The notes under the pieces: generated by a model
Databases searched by the model: none
Told to the model about the DNA's origin: nothing
What the model saw: the letters and a program-made list of their open reading frames with translations, nothing else
Part shown: piece by piece, positions 1 to 43,180 of the stretch
Position numbering within the stretch: position 1 is the stretch's first letter
How the letters are laid out: each line of letters opens with the position of its first letter
Translations under genes and position numbers: made by a program
Virus record (IMG/VR): IMGVR_UViG_3300036778_000070
Span: 1 to 43,978 of that record
DNA from: a virus
Lineage: Duplodnaviria > Caudoviricetes
DNA: 43,978 bases
Reading direction: 5' to 3' (one strand)

Positions 1-393
1 AACGGGGGTAGAACGTTTCGTATCTGTTTCTGAAACGTTGCATCCCGTTTCATGAAACGTTTCAGAAACGTTTCGTTGCCGTTCCCGAAACGCTCGAACC
101 CTTCCTGTTGAGTTGATCCAACCCACTTGCCATTCGTCCCAATCGTGGATGCGATATCCTCCCTTGAGTTTGTCTATAAGCTTTGTTTCTGTAAGATGTT
201 CAAGCGATTTCACGATTTGGTCTTCTGGCGTACGAAGCATAAACGAAATGTCCTCTACGGGGGGCAGCATTCCGTCCTGGTCTCGCCGTGTTGCAAGCAA
301 CATGAGATTGACCCACGTCTTGAAAAGTTCTGGGGAGAGCGACTGGACCTTGCGGTTGTCGAGAGTTGAATGCCACATAGGAAACCAGTCCAT
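1..393 (-). CDS. Phage replication initiator / replisome-organiser-like protein (N-terminal part; runs off the window)
   Basis: Not in the ORF track. Hand translation from ATG 393: MDWFPMWHSTLDNRKVQSLSPELFKTWVNLMLLA...GYRIHDWDEWQ...STGRVRAFRERQRNVSETFHET. The 'W..L....K...L' start and 'I.dW.ewQ...st.Rv.r.Rer' segment are typical of phage replication initiators. Confidence 0.75.
   Translation of the reverse strand, partial: MDWFPMWHSTLDNRKVQSLSPELFKTWVNLMLLATRRDQDGMLPPVEDISFMLRTPEDQIVKSLEHLTETKLIDKLKGGYRIHDWDEWQVGWINSTGRVRAFRERQRNVSETFHETGCNVSETDTKRSTPV
11..92. repeat. Iteron-like GAAACGTT(TC) repeats, putative replication origin inside the initiator gene
   Basis: GAAACGTT at 32, 54 and 65 (palindromic GAAACGTTTC at 54-63 and 65-74); variants at 11 and 87. 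Lambda O-type origins lie inside the initiator gene. Confidence 0.6.
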
Positions 394-463
394 GAATTGC
401 TCGTGATGAAAGTTAGAGGTCCGCGCCGTGATGCGACGTCGCAAACACGGCGCGGCAGTGCGG

Positions 464-886
464 TCAATAGGGCACGTCGTCATCACCTAGGTCGTCGTCG
501 TCGCCAGGCTCTTTCGGGATGATTGGACCGGTTGCTTTCGCGGCCGGCTTGGCTGCCTTGGGATCCTTGGGTGGCTTCGAGCGAACCCGAAGGGCCGGCA
601 CCGAATCCCCTGCGAAGTCAACTTCGGTCACAAACAGTGTGATGCGCTTCCCAAGCCAATCGTCGCTTTCATCACCATATAGCTTGGCGATGGTCTTGCA
701 ATTGGTCTTGTTGGCCAGAAACGGCTTGATTCCCGGCTCTCTGAAGGCGATGCACACCTTGCTCGTTCCGTCTCGCATCTTCTCTTGGGTGATGTTTTTG
801 ATCGTGACGACCAGGTCTTGGTCTTCTTCGAGGTCCGCGGACGCAAGCCATTTGGAAGGATAGAGGTCATCGAGTTTAGGCATCAT
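464..886 (-). CDS. Single-stranded DNA-binding protein (phage type)
   Basis: Has an 'NKTN...I..LYG....W.GKRITL' core and an acidic tail ending in an aromatic residue (DDDDLGDDDVPY); lies next to the initiator. Confidence 0.65.
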   Translation of the reverse strand: MMPKLDDLYPSKWLASADLEEDQDLVVTIKNITQEKMRDGTSKVCIAFREPGIKPFLANKTNCKTIAKLYGDESDDWLGKRITLFVTEVDFAGDSVPALRVRSKPPKDPKAAKPAAKATGPIIPKEPGDDDDLGDDDVPY

Positions 887-910: not shown

Positions 911-1069
911 TTAGGCGACCTGGAAATGGTTGACGTGGGCGGCCAATTCCTTGGCCTTCAGTTCCTCCACAAGCTTGGTGTCCCGTTGACGCTCAAGCAT
1001 CTCAATCAGCCGTCTGAGGTCCGGCTGTTGGCGGTGCGCTCGCTCTTGCAAGACTTGTTCAGTTTCCAT
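911..1069 (-). CDS. Small hypothetical protein (52 aa)
   Basis: Hand-translated METEQVLQERAHRQQPDLRRLIEMLERQ...FQVA, with a GGAG SD upstream. Confidence 0.6.
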   Translation of the reverse strand: METEQVLQERAHRQQPDLRRLIEMLERQRDTKLVEELKAKELAAHVNHFQVA

Positions 1070-1139: not shown

Positions 1140-1313
1140 TCACGCAGTGATAACCGGTGGCCCACCAATCGGTGGCGGCGGTGTTGGCGGGCTCTGATCA
1201 ACCGGGGCAGACTGGCTGCCACCAGGGGCTACGGTGTCGAGCGGCACGACCGTTGACGGTGCGATGCGGCCGGGTAGCGGCTCGAGATGGGGGTAATACT
1301 TACGCGGTCTCAT
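1140..1313 (-). CDS. 57-aa Pro-rich protein with a planctomycete export-signal-like (LEPR/Planc_extracel-like) N-terminus
   Basis: MRPRKYYPHLEPLPGRIAPS followed by a Pro-rich tail; ATGA overlap with the upstream stop at 1310-1312. Confidence 0.6.
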   Translation of the reverse strand: MRPRKYYPHLEPLPGRIAPSTVVPLDTVAPGGSQSAPVDQSPPTPPPPIGGPPVITA

Positions 1314-1555
1314 GGGCGTCTGGTCCTTTCGTGCTCGAGGTCTTCTTGGTAGTTCCTGGCTTCGCATTCCGCTTCGTAGCGGGCTTCGGCTTGTTCCTCA
1401 GTCTCGAGGCGGTAACCGAGCCCTTTGCAGTGGTAGCAACGGGAATCGGAATGCCTGCCCAGCCCCGTAGCCATGCACGGCTGGCATTCGATCCTCTGTC
1501 GTGCCGATCGAACGATGATGTTGTCGGCTTCTAGCTCACGATCACGCCTGGGCAT
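1310..1555 (-). CDS. Small zinc-finger protein (DnaJ-like CxxCxxxG repeats)
   Basis: CQPCMATG and CYHCKGLG motifs; GGAGG SD before ATG 1555. Confidence 0.6.
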   Translation of the reverse strand: MPRRDRELEADNIIVRSARQRIECQPCMATGLGRHSDSRCYHCKGLGYRLETEEQAEARYEAECEARNYQEDLEHERTRRP

Positions 1556-1769
1556 GCTGAGCCTCCGTGGCGTTAGAGTGGTGCAGGCCATCGAGTGGCC
1601 TCGCTGGCGCACAGTCAGGGCACAAATCGGCGAATCCGTCGCAGCGTTTGACAGACTTCCACCCCAGCTCCGCAGCTCTTCTAGCCATCTTCAGAGCTGG
1701 ATAGGCGTCGTATGGCCATCCATCGATCGAGTTGTCACATTCGGAGCAACTGAGAACTAATCGCAACAT
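1542..1769 (-). CDS. Small zinc-binding hypothetical protein
   Basis: CSEC...GW...DLCPDC pattern common in phage early genes. Confidence 0.55.
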   Translation of the reverse strand: MLRLVLSCSECDNSIDGWPYDAYPALKMARRAAELGWKSVKRCDGFADLCPDCAPARPLDGLHHSNATEAQHAQA

Positions 1770-1857: not shown

Positions 1858-2091
1858 TTAGGCAGCGTTGTTGGGTGGCGCAGCGATGCGCTCCACGTCT
1901 TCACGCCAGTAACGGCGGCGACCGCCAACTTTGCGATCTGTGATATGGCCCTTCAGCACCATTCGCCGGAACGCGCTCAGAGAGCATTGAAGAGTGGCCA
2001 CGCACTCATCGCGGGTAAGCCAGTTGAGGGTGGCCGAAGCGACCTCAGCCATGTTTGACTCCGTTAAGCCCATGTGAATCGTTTGAACCAC
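1858..2091 (-). CDS. HTH_17 (MerR/excisionase-like) DNA-binding protein in the Cro position
   Basis: WLTRDECVATLQCSLSAFRRMVLKGHI...VGGRRRYWREDVE; divergent from the repressor. Exact start uncertain. Confidence 0.7.
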   Translation of the reverse strand: MVQTIHMGLTESNMAEVASATLNWLTRDECVATLQCSLSAFRRMVLKGHITDRKVGGRRRYWREDVERIAAPPNNAA

Positions 2092-2254: not shown

Positions 2255-2623
2255 ATGGCGGAACCAGAAAAAGAAGTGCTGACCAAGCAGGATGCGTGCT
2301 TCCGTGCGCAAGACAAGGTGAGAGAGTTGATACCCTGGCAGAATGCAGCGAGGGTAGCGCGTGAGGCGGGCATCGACAATTCAAGGCTGAACCGATGGCT
2401 GAATGAGAAAGCCGGCCTGTTTTACTGGGAGCTTTTTCGCCTCGCGCGCAGCCTCGATGTCACGATGGATTACCTTTGTGACGACACTCAACCGACGAAG
2501 AATGTCACAAATCCATCTCTAAAGACCGGTAAAGTGATCCGGTCACGCGACACGTCTGATCTGCCGATCCCGCCGAAGGGGTCAGCCAGACCGAAGTCTA
2601 AGGGCATGAATAAGCCTCGGTGA
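2255..2623 (+). CDS. CI-like XRE HTH repressor
   Basis: AARVAREAGIDNSRLNRWLNE...LFRLARSLDVTMDYL is an HTH_3 pattern. Start placed at ATG 2255, downstream of the promoter. No S24 peptidase domain. Confidence 0.8.
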   Translation: MAEPEKEVLTKQDACFRAQDKVRELIPWQNAARVAREAGIDNSRLNRWLNEKAGLFYWELFRLARSLDVTMDYLCDDTQPTKNVTNPSLKTGKVIRSRDTSDLPIPPKGSARPKSKGMNKPR

Positions 2624-3935: not shown

Positions 3936-4673
3936 ATGATTCGCAAGCTCGGCAAAAAAGCAGCCCGGCACGACGATCGAACGCTAAAGTTCGCGAAGTA
4001 CGCGCCGCCAGTCCGACCACCAGCCTCAGTGAATTGGACCAACATCGTCAAGTCGTGGGGCATGCTCGGCAACGATCAGTGCGGCGATTGCACGTTTGCC
4101 GCGGTGGCTCACCTGCTTCAGTCGTGGGAGGAGAACAACGGTGTTACCGGTGGTACTCCAACAGAGTCGTCGGTGGTATCGGCTTATGCGTCGGCTACTG
4201 GCTACGATCCGAGGACTGGCGCCAACGACAACGGCGCCAATATGCTGGATGTCCTCAACCGATGGACCGATCCAGGCCTGTTTGGTAACCGACTCGGCGC
4301 CTATGCCAAGGTTGAGACGCAACACGAGGTGCAGTTATCAACTTGGTGGTTCGGTGGTGTTTACGTGGGCATCCAATTGCCCATCTCAGCCAACGACCAA
4401 ATCAATGGTCATATGCCATGGGTACTTCCCTTGGACATCTCACCCAGCAATGAGCCGGGCTCGTGGGGCGGTCATTGCGTGCCAATCGTGGCTTATTCCG
4501 ATTGGGGAGTCACAGTGGTGACATGGGGCCAACTTCAACTGGCTTCGTGGGGCTGGCTCCAGGTTTACATGGATGAAGCGTATGCCTGCTTAGATTTAGC
4601 ATGGACCGTAAGGGGGCATGCGCCAAATACATTCGACTTCGTGACACTACAACAGGATTTGGCGTCACTATGA
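3936..4673 (+). CDS. Papain-like (C1-type) cysteine peptidase
   Basis: MLGNDQCGDCTFAA (catalytic Cys), GGHCV (His) and VTWG motifs. Confidence 0.8.
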   Translation: MIRKLGKKAARHDDRTLKFAKYAPPVRPPASVNWTNIVKSWGMLGNDQCGDCTFAAVAHLLQSWEENNGVTGGTPTESSVVSAYASATGYDPRTGANDNGANMLDVLNRWTDPGLFGNRLGAYAKVETQHEVQLSTWWFGGVYVGIQLPISANDQINGHMPWVLPLDISPSNEPGSWGGHCVPIVAYSDWGVTVVTWGQLQLASWGWLQVYMDEAYACLDLAWTVRGHAPNTFDFVTLQQDLASL

Positions 4674-5767
4674 ATGGAATCCTTCTAGCGCTGGCTATCA
4701 CCGCCCAATCTGGTTCATGCTCCGACGGCGTATGCTATCCCGGCGCTGAGCAGCCTCCCCGCTCGAGTGTCGCTGTCGCGGCCAATCCTGGCTGGCTCAA
4801 GTACAGCGTCCGAATTAAGGCTGACGACCGCCAAGGGACTGGTTGGGGATCAGGGACGATTATTCGGGTCGTGGACGACCGGGCTCTCGTGCTGACCGCT
4901 GCGCATGTTGTCGAGGGATCGACTCGGGTATCTGTCCAGCATCGCAGCGGTTGGTACGGGGCCAGAGTGCTCGGGATGGGTCAAGGGGCGGATCTTGCCG
5001 CGCTGGAGATTGCGGCACCGGCTGGGATCGATGGCCTGAATATCGCCAAAGAGCATCCGACGACCGGGATTCTGTATGGGTTCGGCGGTGATGGACAATT
5101 TCACCGGCACAGCGGGCAGCTCACAACATGGGGAACACGCAGTGGTGATTCTAGCCCAGATTACGGCTTTAGCTTCCATTCCGACTCTGGAGACTCTGGA
5201 GGCACTGTTGTTAATGACCGGGGAGAGTTTGTTGGTGTACTTTGGGGTGGTAACGGCAGTAAATCAATGGTGGTCAGCCTCTCCAAAATCAACACGTTTC
5301 TTGCTACGCCCAATTGTTTTCGGTTCTTCCAGAGGCGACCGAAACAGATCAACGTCGCAGTGACCATGCCGCCAGCGCCGACCAATGTTATTCCGCCCCC
5401 TCCAGTCGAGCCAACGCCAGTTACGCCAGTGCCAGTCGCTCCGATCCAACCGGCTCCGGTAGCGGTGGTAGGGCCTCAAGGCCCCCAGGGGTTGCCGGGG
5501 CCGGCTGGCCCTCCAGGCGTTGGATTGCCTGGTCCAGCGGGTCAGCCTGGTGCGCAAGGCCCTCCCGGTCCAGTTGACCCAACGTTAGCGGCTCGAGTGG
5601 CAGCCCTCGAGGCTGAGATTAAGAAGCCGATCAGTTTTCAGATTCCTCAGGCCGATGGCTCATTGGCGACAGCCGCGGCCAAACTTGGGGACACGGTAGT
5701 TTTGTCTTTGCAGCACGCAGTTAGTCCAGCTCCAATTCCACCTCCACCAACCCCCGCAACGAGGTAA
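4670..5767 (+). CDS. Secreted trypsin-like serine protease with Pro-rich linker and collagen repeat
   Basis: Signal-like N-terminus; LTAAHVV, DLA and GDSGG triad motifs; a GPQGPQGLPGPAGPPG... run; ATGA overlap with the upstream gene. Confidence 0.85.
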   Translation: MNGILLALAITAQSGSCSDGVCYPGAEQPPRSSVAVAANPGWLKYSVRIKADDRQGTGWGSGTIIRVVDDRALVLTAAHVVEGSTRVSVQHRSGWYGARVLGMGQGADLAALEIAAPAGIDGLNIAKEHPTTGILYGFGGDGQFHRHSGQLTTWGTRSGDSSPDYGFSFHSDSGDSGGTVVNDRGEFVGVLWGGNGSKSMVVSLSKINTFLATPNCFRFFQRRPKQINVAVTMPPAPTNVIPPPPVEPTPVTPVPVAPIQPAPVAVVGPQGPQGLPGPAGPPGVGLPGPAGQPGAQGPPGPVDPTLAARVAALEAEIKKPISFQIPQADGSLATAAAKLGDTVVLSLQHAVSPAPIPPPPTPATR

Positions 5768-5770
5768 CAA

Positions 5771-6142
5771 ATGCCAGCCTTAAACACGGCGCCGGCAGCC
5801 CTTGACGATGTTGAAAATGCAGCTCAACGTTCATGGGGCACCGGCAACCAGGTTCTGAATCAGCAACTCCTACGGATGAACGAGGGCGACAACTACATCG
5901 CCAGCACGTCCAGGCAGAATTTCGGCATTGCAAACCAACTCATTAACTACGTTGGCGCTCAAGCGATGCTCGGCAGCGATCCCACGCTCCAGGCCAGCAT
6001 TCTTGCCGCTCGGTCTGCCGGCGCTCAGCCCCAATCAGGCGGGGGCCCTGGTCAGCCAGTTAGCTTCCCAGTTCAGCAGCAATTGCCCACACCAGCCGTA
6101 TACAGCGTCAACCCCACCACCGGCGCCATTACCAAGGCTTGA
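5771..6142 (+). CDS. Hypothetical protein (Gln/Ala/Asn-rich)
   Basis: GAGG SD; tightly packed in the operon. Confidence 0.6.
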   Translation: MPALNTAPAALDDVENAAQRSWGTGNQVLNQQLLRMNEGDNYIASTSRQNFGIANQLINYVGAQAMLGSDPTLQASILAARSAGAQPQSGGGPGQPVSFPVQQQLPTPAVYSVNPTTGAITKA

Positions 6143-6155
6143 TCGGAGCCCAACC

Positions 6156-6389
6156 ATGGTTCGTTTCTCAGCGCCCGATGGGGCGATCATCAAAATCACC
6201 GGCGGCCCGGCAATCGTTCAGATTGAGCCTGATCCGGGCCAAGCCGCTGTTGTTCAGCCGATCGCTACCGCGGCACCGGTGGCTCAACCAAAGATCGAGG
6301 CGCCGGTAACCGGGCATGCGCCGGCGATCACAGCCCCCTTTCTGGTCGACCCTTCGTCGACGGTTACGGCGCAGGTTTTCCAGGGTTGA
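6156..6389 (+). CDS. Hypothetical protein
   Basis: MVRFSAPDGAIIKITGGP..., preceded by GGAG. Confidence 0.5.
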   Translation: MVRFSAPDGAIIKITGGPAIVQIEPDPGQAAVVQPIATAAPVAQPKIEAPVTGHAPAITAPFLVDPSSTVTAQVFQG

Positions 6390-6886
6390 AAAACGCGATT
6401 GACGGGACGATCCGAGACCGCATGGAATTGCCCTTCCTTGTAGGGCTCCAGGATCATCACTCTCTCTTGCGTAGGGTAACCAAGAACACGCAGCGCGGCA
6501 TCGAACGAATGATGGAAAACGGCATGCCTGCTCAAGCTTCAACAACTGGAACGAATGCCGCGGCATCGGAAGAGGATGCAGCGATCCTCAATCGTTGCAG
6601 GATCATCCATAACCACAACTACACCAAAGAGCAGGCGCCAACCACTCCGTGCGGCCCGGTCGTCATTGAGCCGTTTCCCGTGCCACCTCCCCAATACCCT
6701 CAAGCTCGGGGCGTTCCAGTATGGATGGTGGTTGTTCTTATCCTATTAGCGCTATCTCTTGCGGGGGTAGCTGCCGGGGCGACCTGGTGGCTAGCCGCCC
6801 GACCGACCCCGGCAACTCCCACGCCAGCACCAAGTGGCATTCAGCCGGGCGACGATCTTCACATTAAGGTGATACCCGGCACTTGA
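6386..6886 (+). CDS. Membrane protein (single TM, Pro-rich flanks)
   Basis: Hydrophobic segment VWMVVVLILLALSLAGVAAGATWWL; TTGA overlap with the upstream stop. Confidence 0.6.
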   Translation: MKNAIDGTIRDRMELPFLVGLQDHHSLLRRVTKNTQRGIERMMENGMPAQASTTGTNAAASEEDAAILNRCRIIHNHNYTKEQAPTTPCGPVVIEPFPVPPPQYPQARGVPVWMVVVLILLALSLAGVAAGATWWLAARPTPATPTPAPSGIQPGDDLHIKVIPGT

Positions 6887-6887
6887 G

Positions 6888-7091
6888 ATGCCTCACAACT
6901 GGCGCAAGAAACGGCGAAAGATTCATGCCCACGCACTGAGCAGGTGCGAGAGCTGTAACCGGGATTGCCTGACGGCGTTTTGTGATGGATGTGCACCGCC
7001 AGTGAAGTATGAGCGGTATGACATGCGAGACGAAAGCCACTTTCCCAGCCGATGGAACGGCGAATCGATCGAGGTAACCACGAAGAGATGA
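6888..7091 (+). CDS. Small Cys-rich protein
   Basis: CESC...FCDGC; translationally coupled to the next gene. Confidence 0.5.
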   Translation: MPHNWRKKRRKIHAHALSRCESCNRDCLTAFCDGCAPPVKYERYDMRDESHFPSRWNGESIEVTTKR

Positions 7092-7531
7092 AACGGATTG
7101 CAACAATCATCTTGGCGCTCGGAGCGCTCAACGGATCAGTTCAGGCCCAATGCGTTAAGTGCGGAAGGAAGTGCGAGGCATGCCCTGGAATTTCACAGTC
7201 TATCGCGACTGCGGCTTCAGACCCTACCGGCTACCAATCCTTTCTGAATCAGACACGATTGAGCCACGGCCTTCGACCGCTCGCTTACGATCCAAACCTA
7301 GCCCGGTCCGCCCAGGCAAACAACACGTGGCAGGCGAGCTACGGGATGGGGCATCACCTCCAGTGCGGAGCGAGCCAATGTGTGGCAATGGGGCAGCCGA
7401 CAGTTCAGGCGGTCCACCAAGCGTGGCTGAACTCCCCCCCTCACCTTGCCATTATTTTGGCCCCGACGGCGAGATTTTTTGGCGTCGCGTTTGACCCGGC
7501 CTCGCGTTCATGGACGCTCAACATCCGGTGA
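7088..7531 (+). CDS. Secreted CAP (SCP) domain protein
   Basis: Signal peptide; LNQTRLSHGLRPLAYDPNLARSAQ and AWLNSPPHLAIIL are CAP signatures. Confidence 0.8.
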   Translation: MKRIATIILALGALNGSVQAQCVKCGRKCEACPGISQSIATAASDPTGYQSFLNQTRLSHGLRPLAYDPNLARSAQANNTWQASYGMGHHLQCGASQCVAMGQPTVQAVHQAWLNSPPHLAIILAPTARFFGVAFDPASRSWTLNIR

Positions 7532-20365: not shown

Positions 20366-20685
20366 GGAATGAAATCCTCGAGGGCCAGAATGGTCATCGT
20401 CAGGAATGCTGGAGGTGGCCATTCTGTCCTTGCTTCATCGGTGTGCAGCCATTTCAACCAAGTAAGTGCACTGAACCTTAAATCTTCAAGGATCGGATGA
20501 ATCTGTTGCTCTGGCCCGTAAAGGATCGTCATTCCATGTTCTGGGTCTGCCCAGCTTGGTCTGGGGAGTGCGCACAGAAGATTATGGGCGGCATCTCTTG
20601 CGGGGCCACGCTTCTTCTCTTCGGCGGCAATCAGGAGCGCTTCAGCTTCCTTGATAATCGGAACAAGATCAACTCTCAATGACAT
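20320..20685 (-). CDS. Hypothetical protein, antisense within the late operon
   Basis: MSLRVDLVPIIKEAEALLIAAEEKK... fills the gap and looks more protein-like than the plus-strand alternatives. Confidence 0.5.
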   Translation of the reverse strand: MSLRVDLVPIIKEAEALLIAAEEKKRGPARDAAHNLLCALPRPSWADPEHGMTILYGPEQQIHPILEDLRFSALTWLKWLHTDEARTEWPPPAFLTMTILALEDFIPQNASVSANTAPVTS

Positions 20686-21683
20686 CCCCCAGATTAACAA
20701 TAGGCATCCCAACCCTCGATAGAGCTGAGATGCTCTCCACGGCTATCGACTCATGTTTAGCCCAGCGAACACCGCTAGGCAAGCCGGTTCCGGTGCATGT
20801 GATTGTAGCCGATCAAGGCGGAACTGATAAGGTCGCTGAAGTGATGCGGCGGTACAGCGAGCATCCCAATGTTGAACACCTTGAGACTTCGGCCAGATGC
20901 CTCTGGGAGAACTGGGATGCCGCAGCGAGAGCGTGTGACACCGAATTCTTCATGTGGCTTCAGGACGATGACGAGATTGCCAAAGGTATAGCGGCCCGGG
21001 TTATTGGCAGCTTCGATGTATTCCCGAAGGCGCTTCACTGGCAAGCCCGGCTTTGTGCTGGTCTCTCTGGGCAGGCCATGGCATGGTGGGGCACCTCGGG
21101 TCCCATGGTGTTGCTCGACATGATCGGGCACAAGCCTCTTCAATACCCAGGCGAAGTGATCCCGCCGTGCATGTATCTAGGCTCTTGGGCCATGTCGCCC
21201 GCGGTGGCGTTCAGGTGCGGTGAGCAGTTCAATCGGGCTCTTGACTGTATGCCGTCCGATGCGGACCTATGGGCAGAGCGAACAATCCTGGCCCTAATGG
21301 GCATGCAAGGGCCATGGATCGCTGATCCGGTCATTGTTGGGCCGTGGATTCATCATGGCGGCAACGAGAGCTATAAGCAGCACCACGACCAAGAACGGCA
21401 GAAGCTGGTGACGCTTGAGGTGCTCGATGATGTCCTTGATCACACGGACTGGCGCGACATTTTTGAGCAATGGTTGCTTTCCATGCGCAACGCGGCCGAC
21501 GTGATGGGCTACCTCAAGGAGTTTCCGGCCGAAGAGTCACGTCATGCTGAAGCACTCAAGGAGGTTATGCGGAAGAGCCTATCAGGTCGCGTGGAGCCAG
21601 TTCTGGAACCCGCTCCCACAGTTGGCGGTCAAGATCTGGTTTGGTCGCAAGAAGCTCTTGATACCATGCGAGCCGCTTCCTGA
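20679..21683 (+). CDS. Glycosyltransferase, GT2-like (GT-A fold)
   Basis: LTIGIPTLDRAEML..AIDSCLAQ, VIVADQG and FMWLQDDD motifs. Confidence 0.88.
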   Translation: MTSPRLTIGIPTLDRAEMLSTAIDSCLAQRTPLGKPVPVHVIVADQGGTDKVAEVMRRYSEHPNVEHLETSARCLWENWDAAARACDTEFFMWLQDDDEIAKGIAARVIGSFDVFPKALHWQARLCAGLSGQAMAWWGTSGPMVLLDMIGHKPLQYPGEVIPPCMYLGSWAMSPAVAFRCGEQFNRALDCMPSDADLWAERTILALMGMQGPWIADPVIVGPWIHHGGNESYKQHHDQERQKLVTLEVLDDVLDHTDWRDIFEQWLLSMRNAADVMGYLKEFPAEESRHAEALKEVMRKSLSGRVEPVLEPAPTVGGQDLVWSQEALDTMRAAS

Positions 21684-36800: not shown

Positions 36801-37174
36801 ACTGGACTGAGGCTCTTGAAATCGTGGTTAGTCGTACCAGCGTGGAGCGGTATCACTTCTTATGTTCGGACCAGTATCCAGATCACACAAGGTGGCGACA
36901 AGCCATGGTTCGCATGGCGTCGGAAACCACAGACTTCCCTCCATTGGTCACGCAGGCTCAGAACCTCTTCCGCTCGGCCCGCGGCTTCGTCCGGTCTGGG
37001 TTCAAGCTGGCCAGCAAATTAGAACGGGCACGGCGGCTAGAGATATGCCGCGTATGCCCGAAGTACGTCGGTAATCGGTGCTCTGTTTGTGGCTGTGCGA
37101 GTGCCGCAAAAACTTGGGTGGCATCAGACCGATGTCCGCTCGATCCACCCAAGTGGTCAGCCGTGACCGACTAG
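36797..37174 (+). CDS. Cys-rich (DUF6171-like) protein
   Basis: RLEICRVCP...CSVCGC...K.......CPLDPPKW pattern. Confidence 0.6.
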   Translation: MNWTEALEIVVSRTSVERYHFLCSDQYPDHTRWRQAMVRMASETTDFPPLVTQAQNLFRSARGFVRSGFKLASKLERARRLEICRVCPKYVGNRCSVCGCASAAKTWVASDRCPLDPPKWSAVTD

Positions 37175-38307
37175 TTTCCTTGCATCATCCTGGCGAAGTC
37201 GCCAGTCGGCGAGCTGTTCTCGGACGATGACACCTGGCCTGTCTTTGAGAATAACGCCACCAGCCAGCTAGAATTAGTCGGCACGGCGCCAACGTCGGCG
37301 CGATTGCCGAGCCAGAAAAACAGCACGCCAGAACTCAGGCCGATTGAGCTAGGCGTTGAATAGATCGTGGTAGGCACCACGGTTCCATCCGGGTTGACGA
37401 TGATGTCAACGTTCCCGGTCGTCTGATTGACCGGCAGCCGGCTCCGGTTGGTTCTCAGGTCGACAACGACGCTCTGGGGCAGCACGGTTGTTCTGGCCGC
37501 ATTAGCAGGCGCAGGACGGCGTCGAATCGCGTAGCTCGCGCCGATGGTGTTCTGCGAGGCTAGCACGCCAAGCCATGTCTCTGGCTCCCACTCGGCTGAT
37601 TCGTCGGTCGTGTTGTTGGCGTTGTTGTCCACTCCGTCAAAACCCTCGTCTACCCAGCCGTTGGCGTTGTCGTCCTTGCCGTTGACGAGTAGCAGGTAAT
37701 CGAGGGTCCTGGTAACCGTCTGGCCGTCTGGCGAGGTGAACACGCGGCTTACCGGGCTGGTTGTGCCAGGATCGCCGACACCGACAAACTGTTCAGCGTT
37801 CGCGGTGACCACAGGGCCGCATACCGTGTACCACGGGCCAGCGTTGTTGATCTGAACCTTATCGCCAACACGGACGTTCCAAAACCACGACGTGGGAGAA
37901 TTGGGAACCCAGGCCCATATTCCTGTTTTGGGATCCTGCACCCAAGAGCCGGGCAACTCCTCGAGCACAAGGGCTGACGTGCCCAGCATCACGCCCGCGG
38001 TATAGGCTTGCGTCGGATAGATCGACACAAGCCCATCCTGATAAGCAGGCGGCATGGCCAGAGGGATTATCTGACTGGAGGTTAACGGCAGTAACGGATC
38101 GGCCAACAGCCGTATTCCGCTCGGCGAGTTATCCCGAATGGCGGCATCCCTGGCGCCGGCGAGGGCTGCCTGAAGAATGCGGGCGCTCTCGCTCATCTGA
38201 CGGTCGCCTATCCCGGTCAAGAGCGTGGGCAGCGTCACGGCGCTTATCAGGATGATGATGGTGATCACAACCAACAGTTCGATCAGCGTGAAGCCATGTC
38301 GACGCAT
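37171..38307 (-). CDS. Prepilin-type N-terminal cleavage/methylation protein (FimT/GspH-like, planctomycete style)
   Basis: MRRHG|FTLIELLVVITIIILISAVTLP class III signal with E5; acidic DxDxN repeats; AGGAG SD. Confidence 0.9.
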   Translation of the reverse strand: MRRHGFTLIELLVVITIIILISAVTLPTLLTGIGDRQMSESARILQAALAGARDAAIRDNSPSGIRLLADPLLPLTSSQIIPLAMPPAYQDGLVSIYPTQAYTAGVMLGTSALVLEELPGSWVQDPKTGIWAWVPNSPTSWFWNVRVGDKVQINNAGPWYTVCGPVVTANAEQFVGVGDPGTTSPVSRVFTSPDGQTVTRTLDYLLLVNGKDDNANGWVDEGFDGVDNNANNTTDESAEWEPETWLGVLASQNTIGASYAIRRRPAPANAARTTVLPQSVVVDLRTNRSRLPVNQTTGNVDIIVNPDGTVVPTTIYSTPSSIGLSSGVLFFWLGNRADVGAVPTNSSWLVALFSKTGQVSSSENSSPTGDFARMMQGN

Positions 38308-40273: not shown

Positions 40274-40340
40274 ATGGTATCTCCTTTCGTGAGATGTTCT
40301 CAGGATGTCTCAAGTATATCCTTCCCACGAAAGGAGTCAA

Positions 40341-41339
40341 ATGCCCCGACCAGCGAAAATATGGGCGCGCAAGAACCGGCCCGGTTTCTACGCCACGATC
40401 GGCAAACAGAAGGTGTTTCTAGGGCTGGACCGCGCGCACGCTGAGCGTGAATTTCACAGATTAAAAGCCGCTACCAAGCCCATCCCACGATCCAAGCAGC
40501 GCGTGGATACTTTGGTGGATTTGTATCTCGATCACGCCTCACGCGAGGTCAGGGAGAGCACGTTCATCAATTACAAATGGTTCCTTCAATCGTGGTGCGA
40601 CCACGCCGGCAGCCGGATAGCCTCGGAACTAAAACCGCTCGACGTGGCGGCGTGGGTGGCAGGGCAGCAGTGGAACCCGACCACGCGGCACCAGGCGATC
40701 TCGATCGCCATCCGGTGGTCGCGGTGGTGCAAACGTATGGGTCACTTGGACCGGCATGTGCTAGAGGATACACCCAGGCCGAAGCAGCTCGTCAGGGAGG
40801 CGGCTCCCCCAGAAGAGATCGACCAATTGCTAGCGGCCATCCCAGACCAGCAATTGCGCGACATCGCGACGGTGATATTCGACAGCGGTGCCCGCCCAGG
40901 CGAGATTCGCACGTTGACGGCGGCTCAGATCAACTGGGAAGCCCGCTCGGCCGTGGTGACTGGTAAGCGTGGATCGCGGATCATCAGCCTGACGGAACGG
41001 TCGATAGCGATACTCGAGCGCTGCGCTATCACGGTGAAGGATGGGCCACTGCTCCTCAACATGGAGGGCAGGCCCTGGTCAAAGACTATGTTGCCCAAGC
41101 GGTTTAACAGGTTATGCAAACGGCTTGGAATCCACGTAGTTCCCTATATGTTGAGACATGACCTGTATCGACGCGCCAGTAAAGCAGGAGCCTCTGATTT
41201 GGCGATCGCCAAACAATTAGGACATGCAGACTTGAAGATGTTGGCGGCTCATTACGCTCATATAGATACTACACAAACGAGAGATGTAGTAGACGCGGCT
41301 GCCGCTAAGCCACGTGAGCCCAAGTCCGACGATCCCTGA
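40341..41339 (+). CDS. int: Tyrosine integrase
   Basis: SGARPGEI (R), GKRG (K), YMLRH, LGH and HYAH catalytic motifs; AAGGAG SD. Confidence 0.92.
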   Translation: MPRPAKIWARKNRPGFYATIGKQKVFLGLDRAHAEREFHRLKAATKPIPRSKQRVDTLVDLYLDHASREVRESTFINYKWFLQSWCDHAGSRIASELKPLDVAAWVAGQQWNPTTRHQAISIAIRWSRWCKRMGHLDRHVLEDTPRPKQLVREAAPPEEIDQLLAAIPDQQLRDIATVIFDSGARPGEIRTLTAAQINWEARSAVVTGKRGSRIISLTERSIAILERCAITVKDGPLLLNMEGRPWSKTMLPKRFNRLCKRLGIHVVPYMLRHDLYRRASKAGASDLAIAKQLGHADLKMLAAHYAHIDTTQTRDVVDAAAAKPREPKSDDP

Positions 41340-42459: not shown

Positions 42460-42720
42460 TCACCCCGGCCCTACAGGCCCGCTCGGGCCCGGTATCGGTA
42501 ACGGCCCGCTATACGGCGGCCACAGCGGGCCGTTGTCGGACGGAAGCGGCGGAAGCGGGCCAGGCTCGGGCTCGGGCAGTGTGCCGTCGTCCGGATCGCC
42601 TGGCACTGGCTCATCGAGCGACACGACGACGGACACCGCTGGGAACGTTTGCGCCAGTGCGGATAGGCTGATCAGGCGCTCGATGTGCTCGATTTGGGGC
42701 AAGAATCGGCGGGGGCTCAT
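42460..42720 (-). CDS. 86-aa Pro-rich protein with a planctomycete export-signal-like N-terminus
   Basis: MSPRRFLPQIEHIERLISLS followed by a Pro/Gly/Asp-rich tail; ATGA overlap. Confidence 0.6.
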   Translation of the reverse strand: MSPRRFLPQIEHIERLISLSALAQTFPAVSVVVSLDEPVPGDPDDGTLPEPEPGPLPPLPSDNGPLWPPYSGPLPIPGPSGPVGPG

Positions 42721-42929
42721 GATGTTCCTTCCGTGGGGTTAAGGGCGGCTTTAGCGCTATCAAGGCCACATGTGCACGGCAGACCTTGGGAGTAATCACA
42801 GTTATCCAGATGTAGCCCGTTTCCTCCATCAGCCTCGGTCCACGCTCGAAGCGCCTTCTCCAGTTCAGCGATGCGGTCCTGGAGGTGATCGTGGAGTTCT
42901 TTCCAGGTCCAAGTGGGGTCAACTTTCAT
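42717..42929 (-). CDS. Hypothetical protein
   Basis: RIAELEKALR...H..NC.....CTCGL..AKAAL; resembles the next ORF. Confidence 0.6.
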   Translation of the reverse strand: MKVDPTWTWKELHDHLQDRIAELEKALRAWTEADGGNGLHLDNCDYSQGLPCTCGLDSAKAALNPTEGTS

Positions 42930-43180
42930 AATGTTCCTTCCGTGGGTGGTTTTAGAACGGCCAGAGCAGCCATATAGGGGCAATACTCACTGTGTTTGAC
43001 GTCCCATTTGGCATGACTGACACGTTTATACTGTGCGCCGCACCAGTGGCAGCACTGTTCGAGATTGCATTGAGCGCCGCTGTCTAACAGGTTTTCGAGA
43101 GCTTCCGTGAGCTCGGCGATGCGGGCTTCCCTCTGTGCGACAATAACGTTCAGCGCTGTTACGGAGCCTCGTAAACTCAT
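42926..43180 (-). CDS. Hypothetical protein
   Basis: RIAELTEALE...CHWC...HSEYCP..AALAVL. Confidence 0.6.
   Translation of the reverse strand: MSLRGSVTALNVIVAQREARIAELTEALENLLDSGAQCNLEQCCHWCGAQYKRVSHAKWDVKHSEYCPYMAALAVLKPPTEGTL

Follow-up and report, generated by a model that had tools for sequence, protein, structure and literature searches.

A phage mini-protein related to a cassette-linked mini-protein family of Isosphaeraceae as a candidate mimic of a host kinase ligand

We find that a 57-aa protein encoded by a temperate soil phage, Mini-protein 1 (MP1), has its relatives in an undescribed chromosomal mini-protein family of the Isosphaeraceae (class A), whose members consist, as read from their sequences, of a leader and a variable Pro/Thr tail. 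In the host chromosomes these mini-proteins accompany two genes, one for an ECF sigma factor and one for a one-pass Ser/Thr kinase that carries a TPR region. The reading we favor, with a probability somewhat below one half (roughly 0.45), is that MP1 would be an exported peptide, one mimicking or perturbing what we predict to be the ligand of this host kinase.

The window, that is, the whole stretch of 43,978 bases that was analysed, is the record of a temperate phage with terminase, portal, capsid, integrase and repressor-like genes. Its completeness is estimated at 65%, and that of the related phage G001 at 100%. The features referred to in the text are as follows.

1..486, minus strand: replication initiation protein, truncated by the window end
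464..886, minus strand: phrog_21613 protein of the leftward operon
911..1069, minus strand: 52-aa gene, immediately 3' of MP1 in the window phage and in G001
1140..1313, minus strand: MP1, 57 aa, top match of the host mini-protein models, with homologues and dN/dS values given below
1143..1253, minus strand: MP1 residues 21-57, the conserved Pro-rich tail (core DTVAPGG), predicted to be the mature peptide
1254..1313, minus strand: MP1 residues 1-20, basic start and P-x-L-E-x-L-P-x-R-I-x-P-S, predicted export signal
1310..1561, minus strand: small gene with Cys pairs, its stop overlapping the MP1 start; DnaJ zinc-finger-like at E 0.01, below the cut-off
1858..2091, minus strand: excisionase-like HTH gene, head of the leftward operon
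2255..2623, plus strand: repressor-like HTH gene, divergent
37171..38307, minus strand: pilin-like N-methyl protein, adjoining the integrase region
40305..41339, plus strand: integrase (temperate phage)
42460..42720, minus strand: Mini-protein 2 (MP2), 86 aa, MP1-like architecture; dN/dS 0.14, class B match at E 7.7e-4

MP1 lies in a leftward series of small genes, with the excisionase-like gene on one side and the replication initiator on the other, and from this position we infer that the operon is an early one. No function was found for the 52-aa gene. G001 has an extra gene between MP1 and the counterpart of the 1310..1561 gene, the upstream genes differ between the two phages, and the DNA 3' of the MP1 stop diverges. 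The host is very probably a member of the Isosphaeraceae, because the pilin-like protein matches 67 of 301 genomes of the class, 65 of them Isosphaeraceae (best identity 55%), which is evidence separate from that of the mini-proteins. Scans with the integrase and the phrog_21613 protein recovered only G001 and an unrelated phage (L004), in which no mini-protein was found. We also note a phrog_19005 protein, a trypsin-like protease with a collagen repeat and a CAP-domain protein 5' of the terminase (3936-7531, plus strand). The two ends of G001 (L001:7600-11975 and L002:1-4000) carry gene runs that are alike but not identical, and this assembly possibly combines two variants.

The MP1 reading frame is a genuine gene, given its ribosome-binding site, its two close homologues and the purifying selection on it. 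The translation of 1140-1313 (minus strand) agrees with the preliminary description, which had reported a 57-aa protein with an N-terminal motif and a Pro-rich tail; proline makes up 16 of the 57 residues and 11 of those 37 that follow the motif. The MP1 start codon (1313) and the stop codon of the preceding gene share bases (ATGA), and AAAGGA lies just 5' as ribosome-binding site. Both homologues (P0002, 85% identity, and phage G001, 83%) start at about the same position, and a 75-aa frame starting at 1367 is for this reason unlikely. Between MP1 and its G001 counterpart, 18 of 27 base changes fall at third positions, and residues 8-57 have a dN/dS of 0.16 (Nei-Gojobori, this single pair; Fisher p 9e-6) at a synonymous divergence of about 0.4 differences per site. 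The other reading frames gave no comparable signal, with the exception of the antisense frame that shares the third positions. G001 carries an MP2 homologue as well, and MP2 against this copy gives a dN/dS of 0.14.

MP1 matched nothing in Pfam, NCBIfam or PHROGs; the ESM Atlas returned three unnamed clusters at 0.85-0.86, below the useful mark, and genome and metagenome scans with the mini-protein alignments recovered no relative. A further candidate relative, P0005, proved to be a repeat artefact. That just three close copies are known could mean that MP1 is a passenger taken from the host with no role for the phage. We regard this as the least probable of the explanations considered here, as MP1 has been kept while its neighbours changed, and purifying selection is seen at the synonymous divergence given above.

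A model built from 13 non-window mini-proteins matches 102 of 121 Isosphaeraceae genomes at E<=0.01, the weaker matches including long proteins; the 121 genomes are the family of G005, a Paludisphaera MAG. We inspected 58 loci (57 from the best 59, and one that ranked lower), and at 56 of them an ECF sigma gene and the start of a Ser/Thr kinase gene come directly downstream of the mini-protein gene. These 56 comprise all 30 top loci, with the 11 training loci among them, and all 26 loci from further genomes; at one of the 56 (L328) the mini-protein itself was not recovered. The remaining two loci are orphan copies in one genome, G049 (L285:1787-2005 and L286:1566-1811), with the same core as the cassette peptide of that genome. 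The cassette kinase consists of a Ser/Thr kinase, one hydrophobic segment and a C-terminal TPR region, and the sigma factor has DSTD in place of DAED at 60 of 70 loci, some genomes being counted twice. Within the sample searched the cassette is confined to one family, and it is single-copy in nearly all genomes matched. The host mini-proteins had no match in PHROGs.

Upstream of the cassette, 29 of the first 30 loci have a conserved 200-aa gene with invariant Cys and Trp (L169:1492-2106, alignment A13). Among 301 genomes sampled from the class it matches 71, all of them Isosphaeraceae, at one place per genome except for two adjoining pieces in G029, and it had no match in PHROGs or the ESM Atlas and none to a known family. 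Several genomes (L169:7017-7964, L282:589-1776, L272 and L273) have a gene for a Xer-like recombinase within a few kb of the cassette, pointing to a stable chromosomal site.

A search with a DNA pattern derived from the MP1 motif is circular for the motif itself, and hence we started from the sigma factor in the 34 genomes with a weak mini-protein match or none. This gave 29 places, of which 25 are cassettes and 4 are paralogues without the upstream gene or a mini-protein. A mini-protein gene stands beside 24 of the 25 cassettes: in 17 it precedes the sigma gene, in 7 it lies convergent just behind the kinase, and one cassette has none. Fifteen of the 17 upstream mini-proteins agree with a motif-free rule, but they were chosen among candidate frames with the help of the leader model. 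As the gene has moved behind the kinase in seven genomes, the linkage survives rearrangement. When a model of the 17 was run on 1,067 frames, the top rank went to MP1 (E 1.7e-4) and the next to MP2 (E 0.038), and none of 2000 shuffles scored as high.

This arrangement bears on the idea that MP1 is a cis-acting leader peptide, on whose proline runs ribosomes stall until export relieves them, so that the next gene is controlled. SecM and VemP are stalling leader peptides relieved by export. The proline runs, the fact that most hosts have the mini-protein gene ahead of the sigma gene, and the same 52-aa gene after MP1 in both phages would all suit such a function. We nevertheless consider it very unlikely, as seven cassettes have the mini-protein gene convergent behind the kinase, the G049 copies are orphans, 300-500 bp separate the mini-protein from the sigma gene in the hosts, and the DNA past the MP1 stop has diverged between the phages.

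The N-terminus of MP1 is, on the score of host-derived models, a variant of the planctomycete leader. Its score on the host-derived leader model was reached by none of 2000 shuffles, its motif is the sole match to the stricter motif pattern across the six frames of the window, and basic residues precede the motif in a PF07595-like placement. The preliminary description had taken this motif for a planctomycete export signal; that stands insofar as it is such a variant, but the named library models miss MP1. Neither the Planc_extracel nor the LEPR-XLL models detected it; PF07595 (Planc_extracel, cut-off 25.5 bits) gave no match at E<=10, and NF012209 (LEPR-8K) stayed below its 17-bit cut-off. 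PF07595 exceeds its own cut-off in only one of five Isosphaeraceae genomes, and its failure on MP1 therefore says little. On a profile of large-protein leaders (35 leaders, anchored out of 40 fetched) MP1 scores -7.4 bits against 12-51 for the members, with 12 of 5000 shuffles as high. Because this profile rejects it, we assign the MP1 leader to a mini-protein subtype distinct from the canonical large-protein form. The canonical LE-x-R leader is found in 6 of the 17 mini-proteins from the sigma-first search (L261-L266), which ties the mini-protein leader to the known planctomycete family.

The DNA pattern from the MP1 motif found 117 genome loci, 24 of them with planctomycete record titles and 21 of these leader-like. 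Sixteen of the 21 carry an acidic residue, Glu or Asp, at the key position, and 14 of these reach the locus end; the other five are on proteins of less than 90 aa. Among these pattern loci a Pro at the second Glu appeared to mark short proteins (5/5 against 1/16, p 0.0003), but this mark fails for L261-L266. A phage-derived profile also matches the N-termini of host frames of 500-3,000 aa. A contig labelled Alcaligenaceae (L064) encodes a protein with a planctomycete-type leader and may be mis-binned. Residues 1-20 of MP1 have no hydrophobic core of a classical Sec signal, the best 11-residue hydropathy being 0.91 at residue 22. According to the accessible text of PMC8567305, which gives consensus motifs, the planctomycete leader is no more than a presumed export signal, and 8 of 20 detected leader carriers were confined to the SDS-soluble fraction.

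The preliminary description had raised the possibility that MP1 is a signal with almost no cargo, a decoy that blocks the export route of the host or competes for it; on such a reading the tail would be filler. It is true that the leader sits on a tiny protein, that there are two such genes per phage, and that a second class of mini-proteins (class B, described below) occurs in three other phage lineages. However, the tail of MP1 (residues 21-57) has a dN/dS of 0.07 against 0.79 for the leader motif, in the one pair with G001 and over only 13 codons for the motif. On this comparison the conserved part of MP1 is the tail and not the leader, which argues against a decoy without cargo. Furthermore, in the hosts this architecture is part of a conserved chromosomal cassette, so that MP1 is no device that the phage invented to block export, and the leader is of the mini-protein subtype, far from the large-protein profile in score. 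We thus find the decoy improbable. The other proposal made there, that MP1 is the precursor of a signalling peptide destined for export, agrees with the gene context in the hosts, and it is this line that we develop here.

We suggest that the host mini-protein is likely an exported signal for the cassette kinase. Across 30 cassettes, identity is 0.59 for the leader, 0.31 for the tail, 0.62 for the kinase and 0.29 for the TPR region; a conserved leader with a variable tail, beside a kinase whose outer region is equally variable, reads as ligand and receptor. In the mechanism we propose, the leader would route the peptide out of the cytoplasm and then be removed, the host tail would bind the periplasmic TPR region of the kinase, and the kinase would turn on the sigma regulon by phosphorylating the Ser/Thr of DSTD in the sigma factor. 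From its early operon the phage would make its own version and push or block this host switch. The DSTD at the DAED site leads us to expect sigma activation by phosphorylation; EcfP, which is without DAED, is switched on in this way (PMC8999054, accessible text). The TPR domains of planctomycete kinases are, in the part of PMC11032199 available, mostly predicted to be periplasmic and mostly without a known role. Neither the window nor G001 has a match at E<0.05 to the kinase, the ECF factor, the TPR region or the gene upstream of the cassette, and MP1 would therefore act via a host receptor. No intracellular TPR receptor was present next to MP1 among the phage neighbours scanned, and in the host kinase the TPR region follows the membrane segment.

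The host mini-proteins are 51-134 aa in total length, with low-complexity and very diverse tails, and this suits another explanation, namely that they are the output of the cassette, structural envelope peptides rich in Pro/Ser/Thr and perhaps glycosylated, and that the phage uses its copy to change the cell surface, for instance for superinfection exclusion. Low-complexity tails of variable length are what a non-specific surface peptide could have. ECF-controlled genes often adjoin the ECF gene, which would account for the neighbourhood, and the phage has, besides its pilin-like gene, a family 2 glycosyltransferase (20679-21683). On the other side, the linkage persists after the move to the far side of the kinase, and a promoter search upstream of the host mini-proteins found no conserved ECF-type or shared promoter. 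The cassette, orphan and Sec-led copies of one genome also have short cores in common. The Sec-led copy is found in G090, where a core similar to the cassette peptide stands behind a classical Sec-type signal directly behind the kinase (L282:2782-3123, minus strand; one case, judged by eye); this single case suggests that the leader can be replaced by an export signal. We therefore consider the surface peptide somewhat unlikely, though to be taken seriously. In many host tails a short motif, PMDP or PMNP, occurs twice (L303, L308-L310, L314 and L317), as in multi-copy peptide precursors.

The same anatomy would also be seen if the mini-protein were a sentinel of the export route, with the kinase sensing the accumulation of precursor or tail in the periplasm at overload and the phage copy skewing the reading of envelope stress within the infected cell. 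The hosts do have many large leader-bearing proteins to monitor (20-41 PF07595 matches at E<=10 per genome). Lineage-specific cores and orphan copies, however, fit specific recognition better than a load gauge, and a Sec-led copy would bypass the monitored route, so we judge a sentinel to be unlikely.

Three proteins from the profile searches (P0004, P0008 and P0009), which are known without gene context, have the same leader as MP1 and, like it, a DTxAPGG core. In pairwise comparison the MP1 tail gives z scores of 8.0 with P0004, 7.3 with P0008, 6.4 with P0009 and 5.3 with L221, a chromosomal mini-protein within a cassette, these being the best of 50 comparisons. The tails of P0004 and P0008 score 28.3 and 18.4 bits on the host core profile; on a profile of 16 host cores the MP1 tail alone was not significant, since 147 of 2000 shuffles did as well. 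Its tie to a cassette-linked core is thus pairwise, and partly transitive through P0004, P0008 and P0009. MP1 has neither the PII motif nor the terminal Cys found in 22 of 47 host mini-proteins, and such an altered tail could make it an agonist or an antagonist. The partial correlation between tail and TPR region was 0.35, against 0.33 for leader and TPR region and 0.26 for tail and kinase, and so gives no sign of specific co-variation. The profile result for the tail and the co-variation count against the ligand reading, as do the promoter search, the diversity of the low-complexity host tails and the separate location of class B described below. Complex prediction for the G090 TPR region with its own peptide scored 0.06, the mark being 0.32, and is weighed on neither side.

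MP1 is not the only protein of its kind in phages. A pattern scan led to an 81-aa leader-plus-tail gene between the terminase and portal genes of another phage, and from this entry point to class B, a second mini-protein family with 19 proteins, which is found in 25 of the 121 Isosphaeraceae genomes. It occurs in five viral contigs (L375-L379) of three phage lineages, always within head operons. Of the viral loci in two pattern scans, 5 of 6 and 7 of 9 were chance matches. The best class B match in the window is MP2, at the E value given in the feature list; the MP2 tail alone is not significant. MP2, which has no match in Pfam or PHROGs, is probably a member of this host family by its profile match. 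No class A cassette was found within 1.5 kb of class B at 30 host loci (L345-L374), one of which has another ECF gene. A pentapeptide-repeat gene adjoins class B at 5 of these 30, and the Pro-rich tail of class B is strongly conserved. An identical 16-base ribosome-binding block precedes MP2 (42721-42737, minus strand), the gene before it (42930-42946, minus strand) and the G001 MP2, and may mark points of gene shuffling. As judged by these profile matches, phages of the Isosphaeraceae have repeatedly kept leader-bearing mini-proteins, with class A established only in the window phage and the related G001.

We can extend the ligand reading to the host as a whole: the Isosphaeraceae would use a peptide hormone, a receptor kinase and a phosphorylated ECF sigma factor for cell-to-cell signalling that is lineage-specific yet spread over the whole family, with the planctomycete leader as the way out of the cell; ligand-only phage copies would jam or spoof it, perhaps counting infections by means of the host receptor. 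This wider picture is tentative, and we would not give it better than about one chance in three. ECF-kinase pairs are already known in planctomycetes, and the gene contexts of ECF217s1 include a Planc_extracel protein and TPR (PMC7826278 and its supplement, in the parts available). For the kinase-linked ECFs of planctomycetes the accessible literature names no ligand, and the mini-protein offers a concrete single-gene candidate. The openly accessible literature searched held no description of the mini-protein family or of a ligand for such a kinase. With a natural substrate of 57-80 aa, the planctomycete export leader would also be far easier to study than with proteins that run to thousands of residues. 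Should the phage copy act on the host kinase, a bacterial virus would here mimic a receptor-kinase pathway with the ligand alone.

Several known systems resemble parts of this arrangement. MP1 has in common with the PF07595/NF012209 leader an N-terminal basic stretch followed by L-E-x-L-x-x-R; it differs in having Pro at the second Glu and in leading 37 residues instead of a large surface protein, and by score it is a member neither of PF07595 or NF012209 nor of RRNPP. The host cassette is like PknT/EcfP, PknS/EcfK (ECF43) and the planctomycete groups ECF59, 61, 62 and 217 in having an ECF gene followed by a membrane Ser/Thr kinase, and like the phosphorylation-activated ECFs in having Ser/Thr at the DAED site. 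In the accessible parts of the sources those systems are described with no peptide ligand or linked mini-protein; in our case, moreover, the ECF and kinase are host genes, absent from the phage. With RRNPP and arbitrium the cassette shares, as far as the accessible sources go, a small precursor with an export leader and a variable core beside a gene for a TPR-bearing receptor, and the phage shares the carriage of peptide genes. The RRNPP receptors are intracellular and belong to Gram-positive bacteria, whereas the candidate receptor here is a membrane kinase of a diderm, and phages with such systems carry both peptide and receptor, whereas the window phage carries the peptide alone. Phage phiCDHM1 has agr genes, homologues of a host gene for a peptide signal, but lacks part of the response pathway. 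In the agr system a histidine kinase reads AgrD after AgrB has cyclised it, and MP1 differs in having no processing enzyme linked to it, but the two cases are alike in that a phage has a homologue of a host peptide signal, in our case a predicted one, without a complete path for the response.
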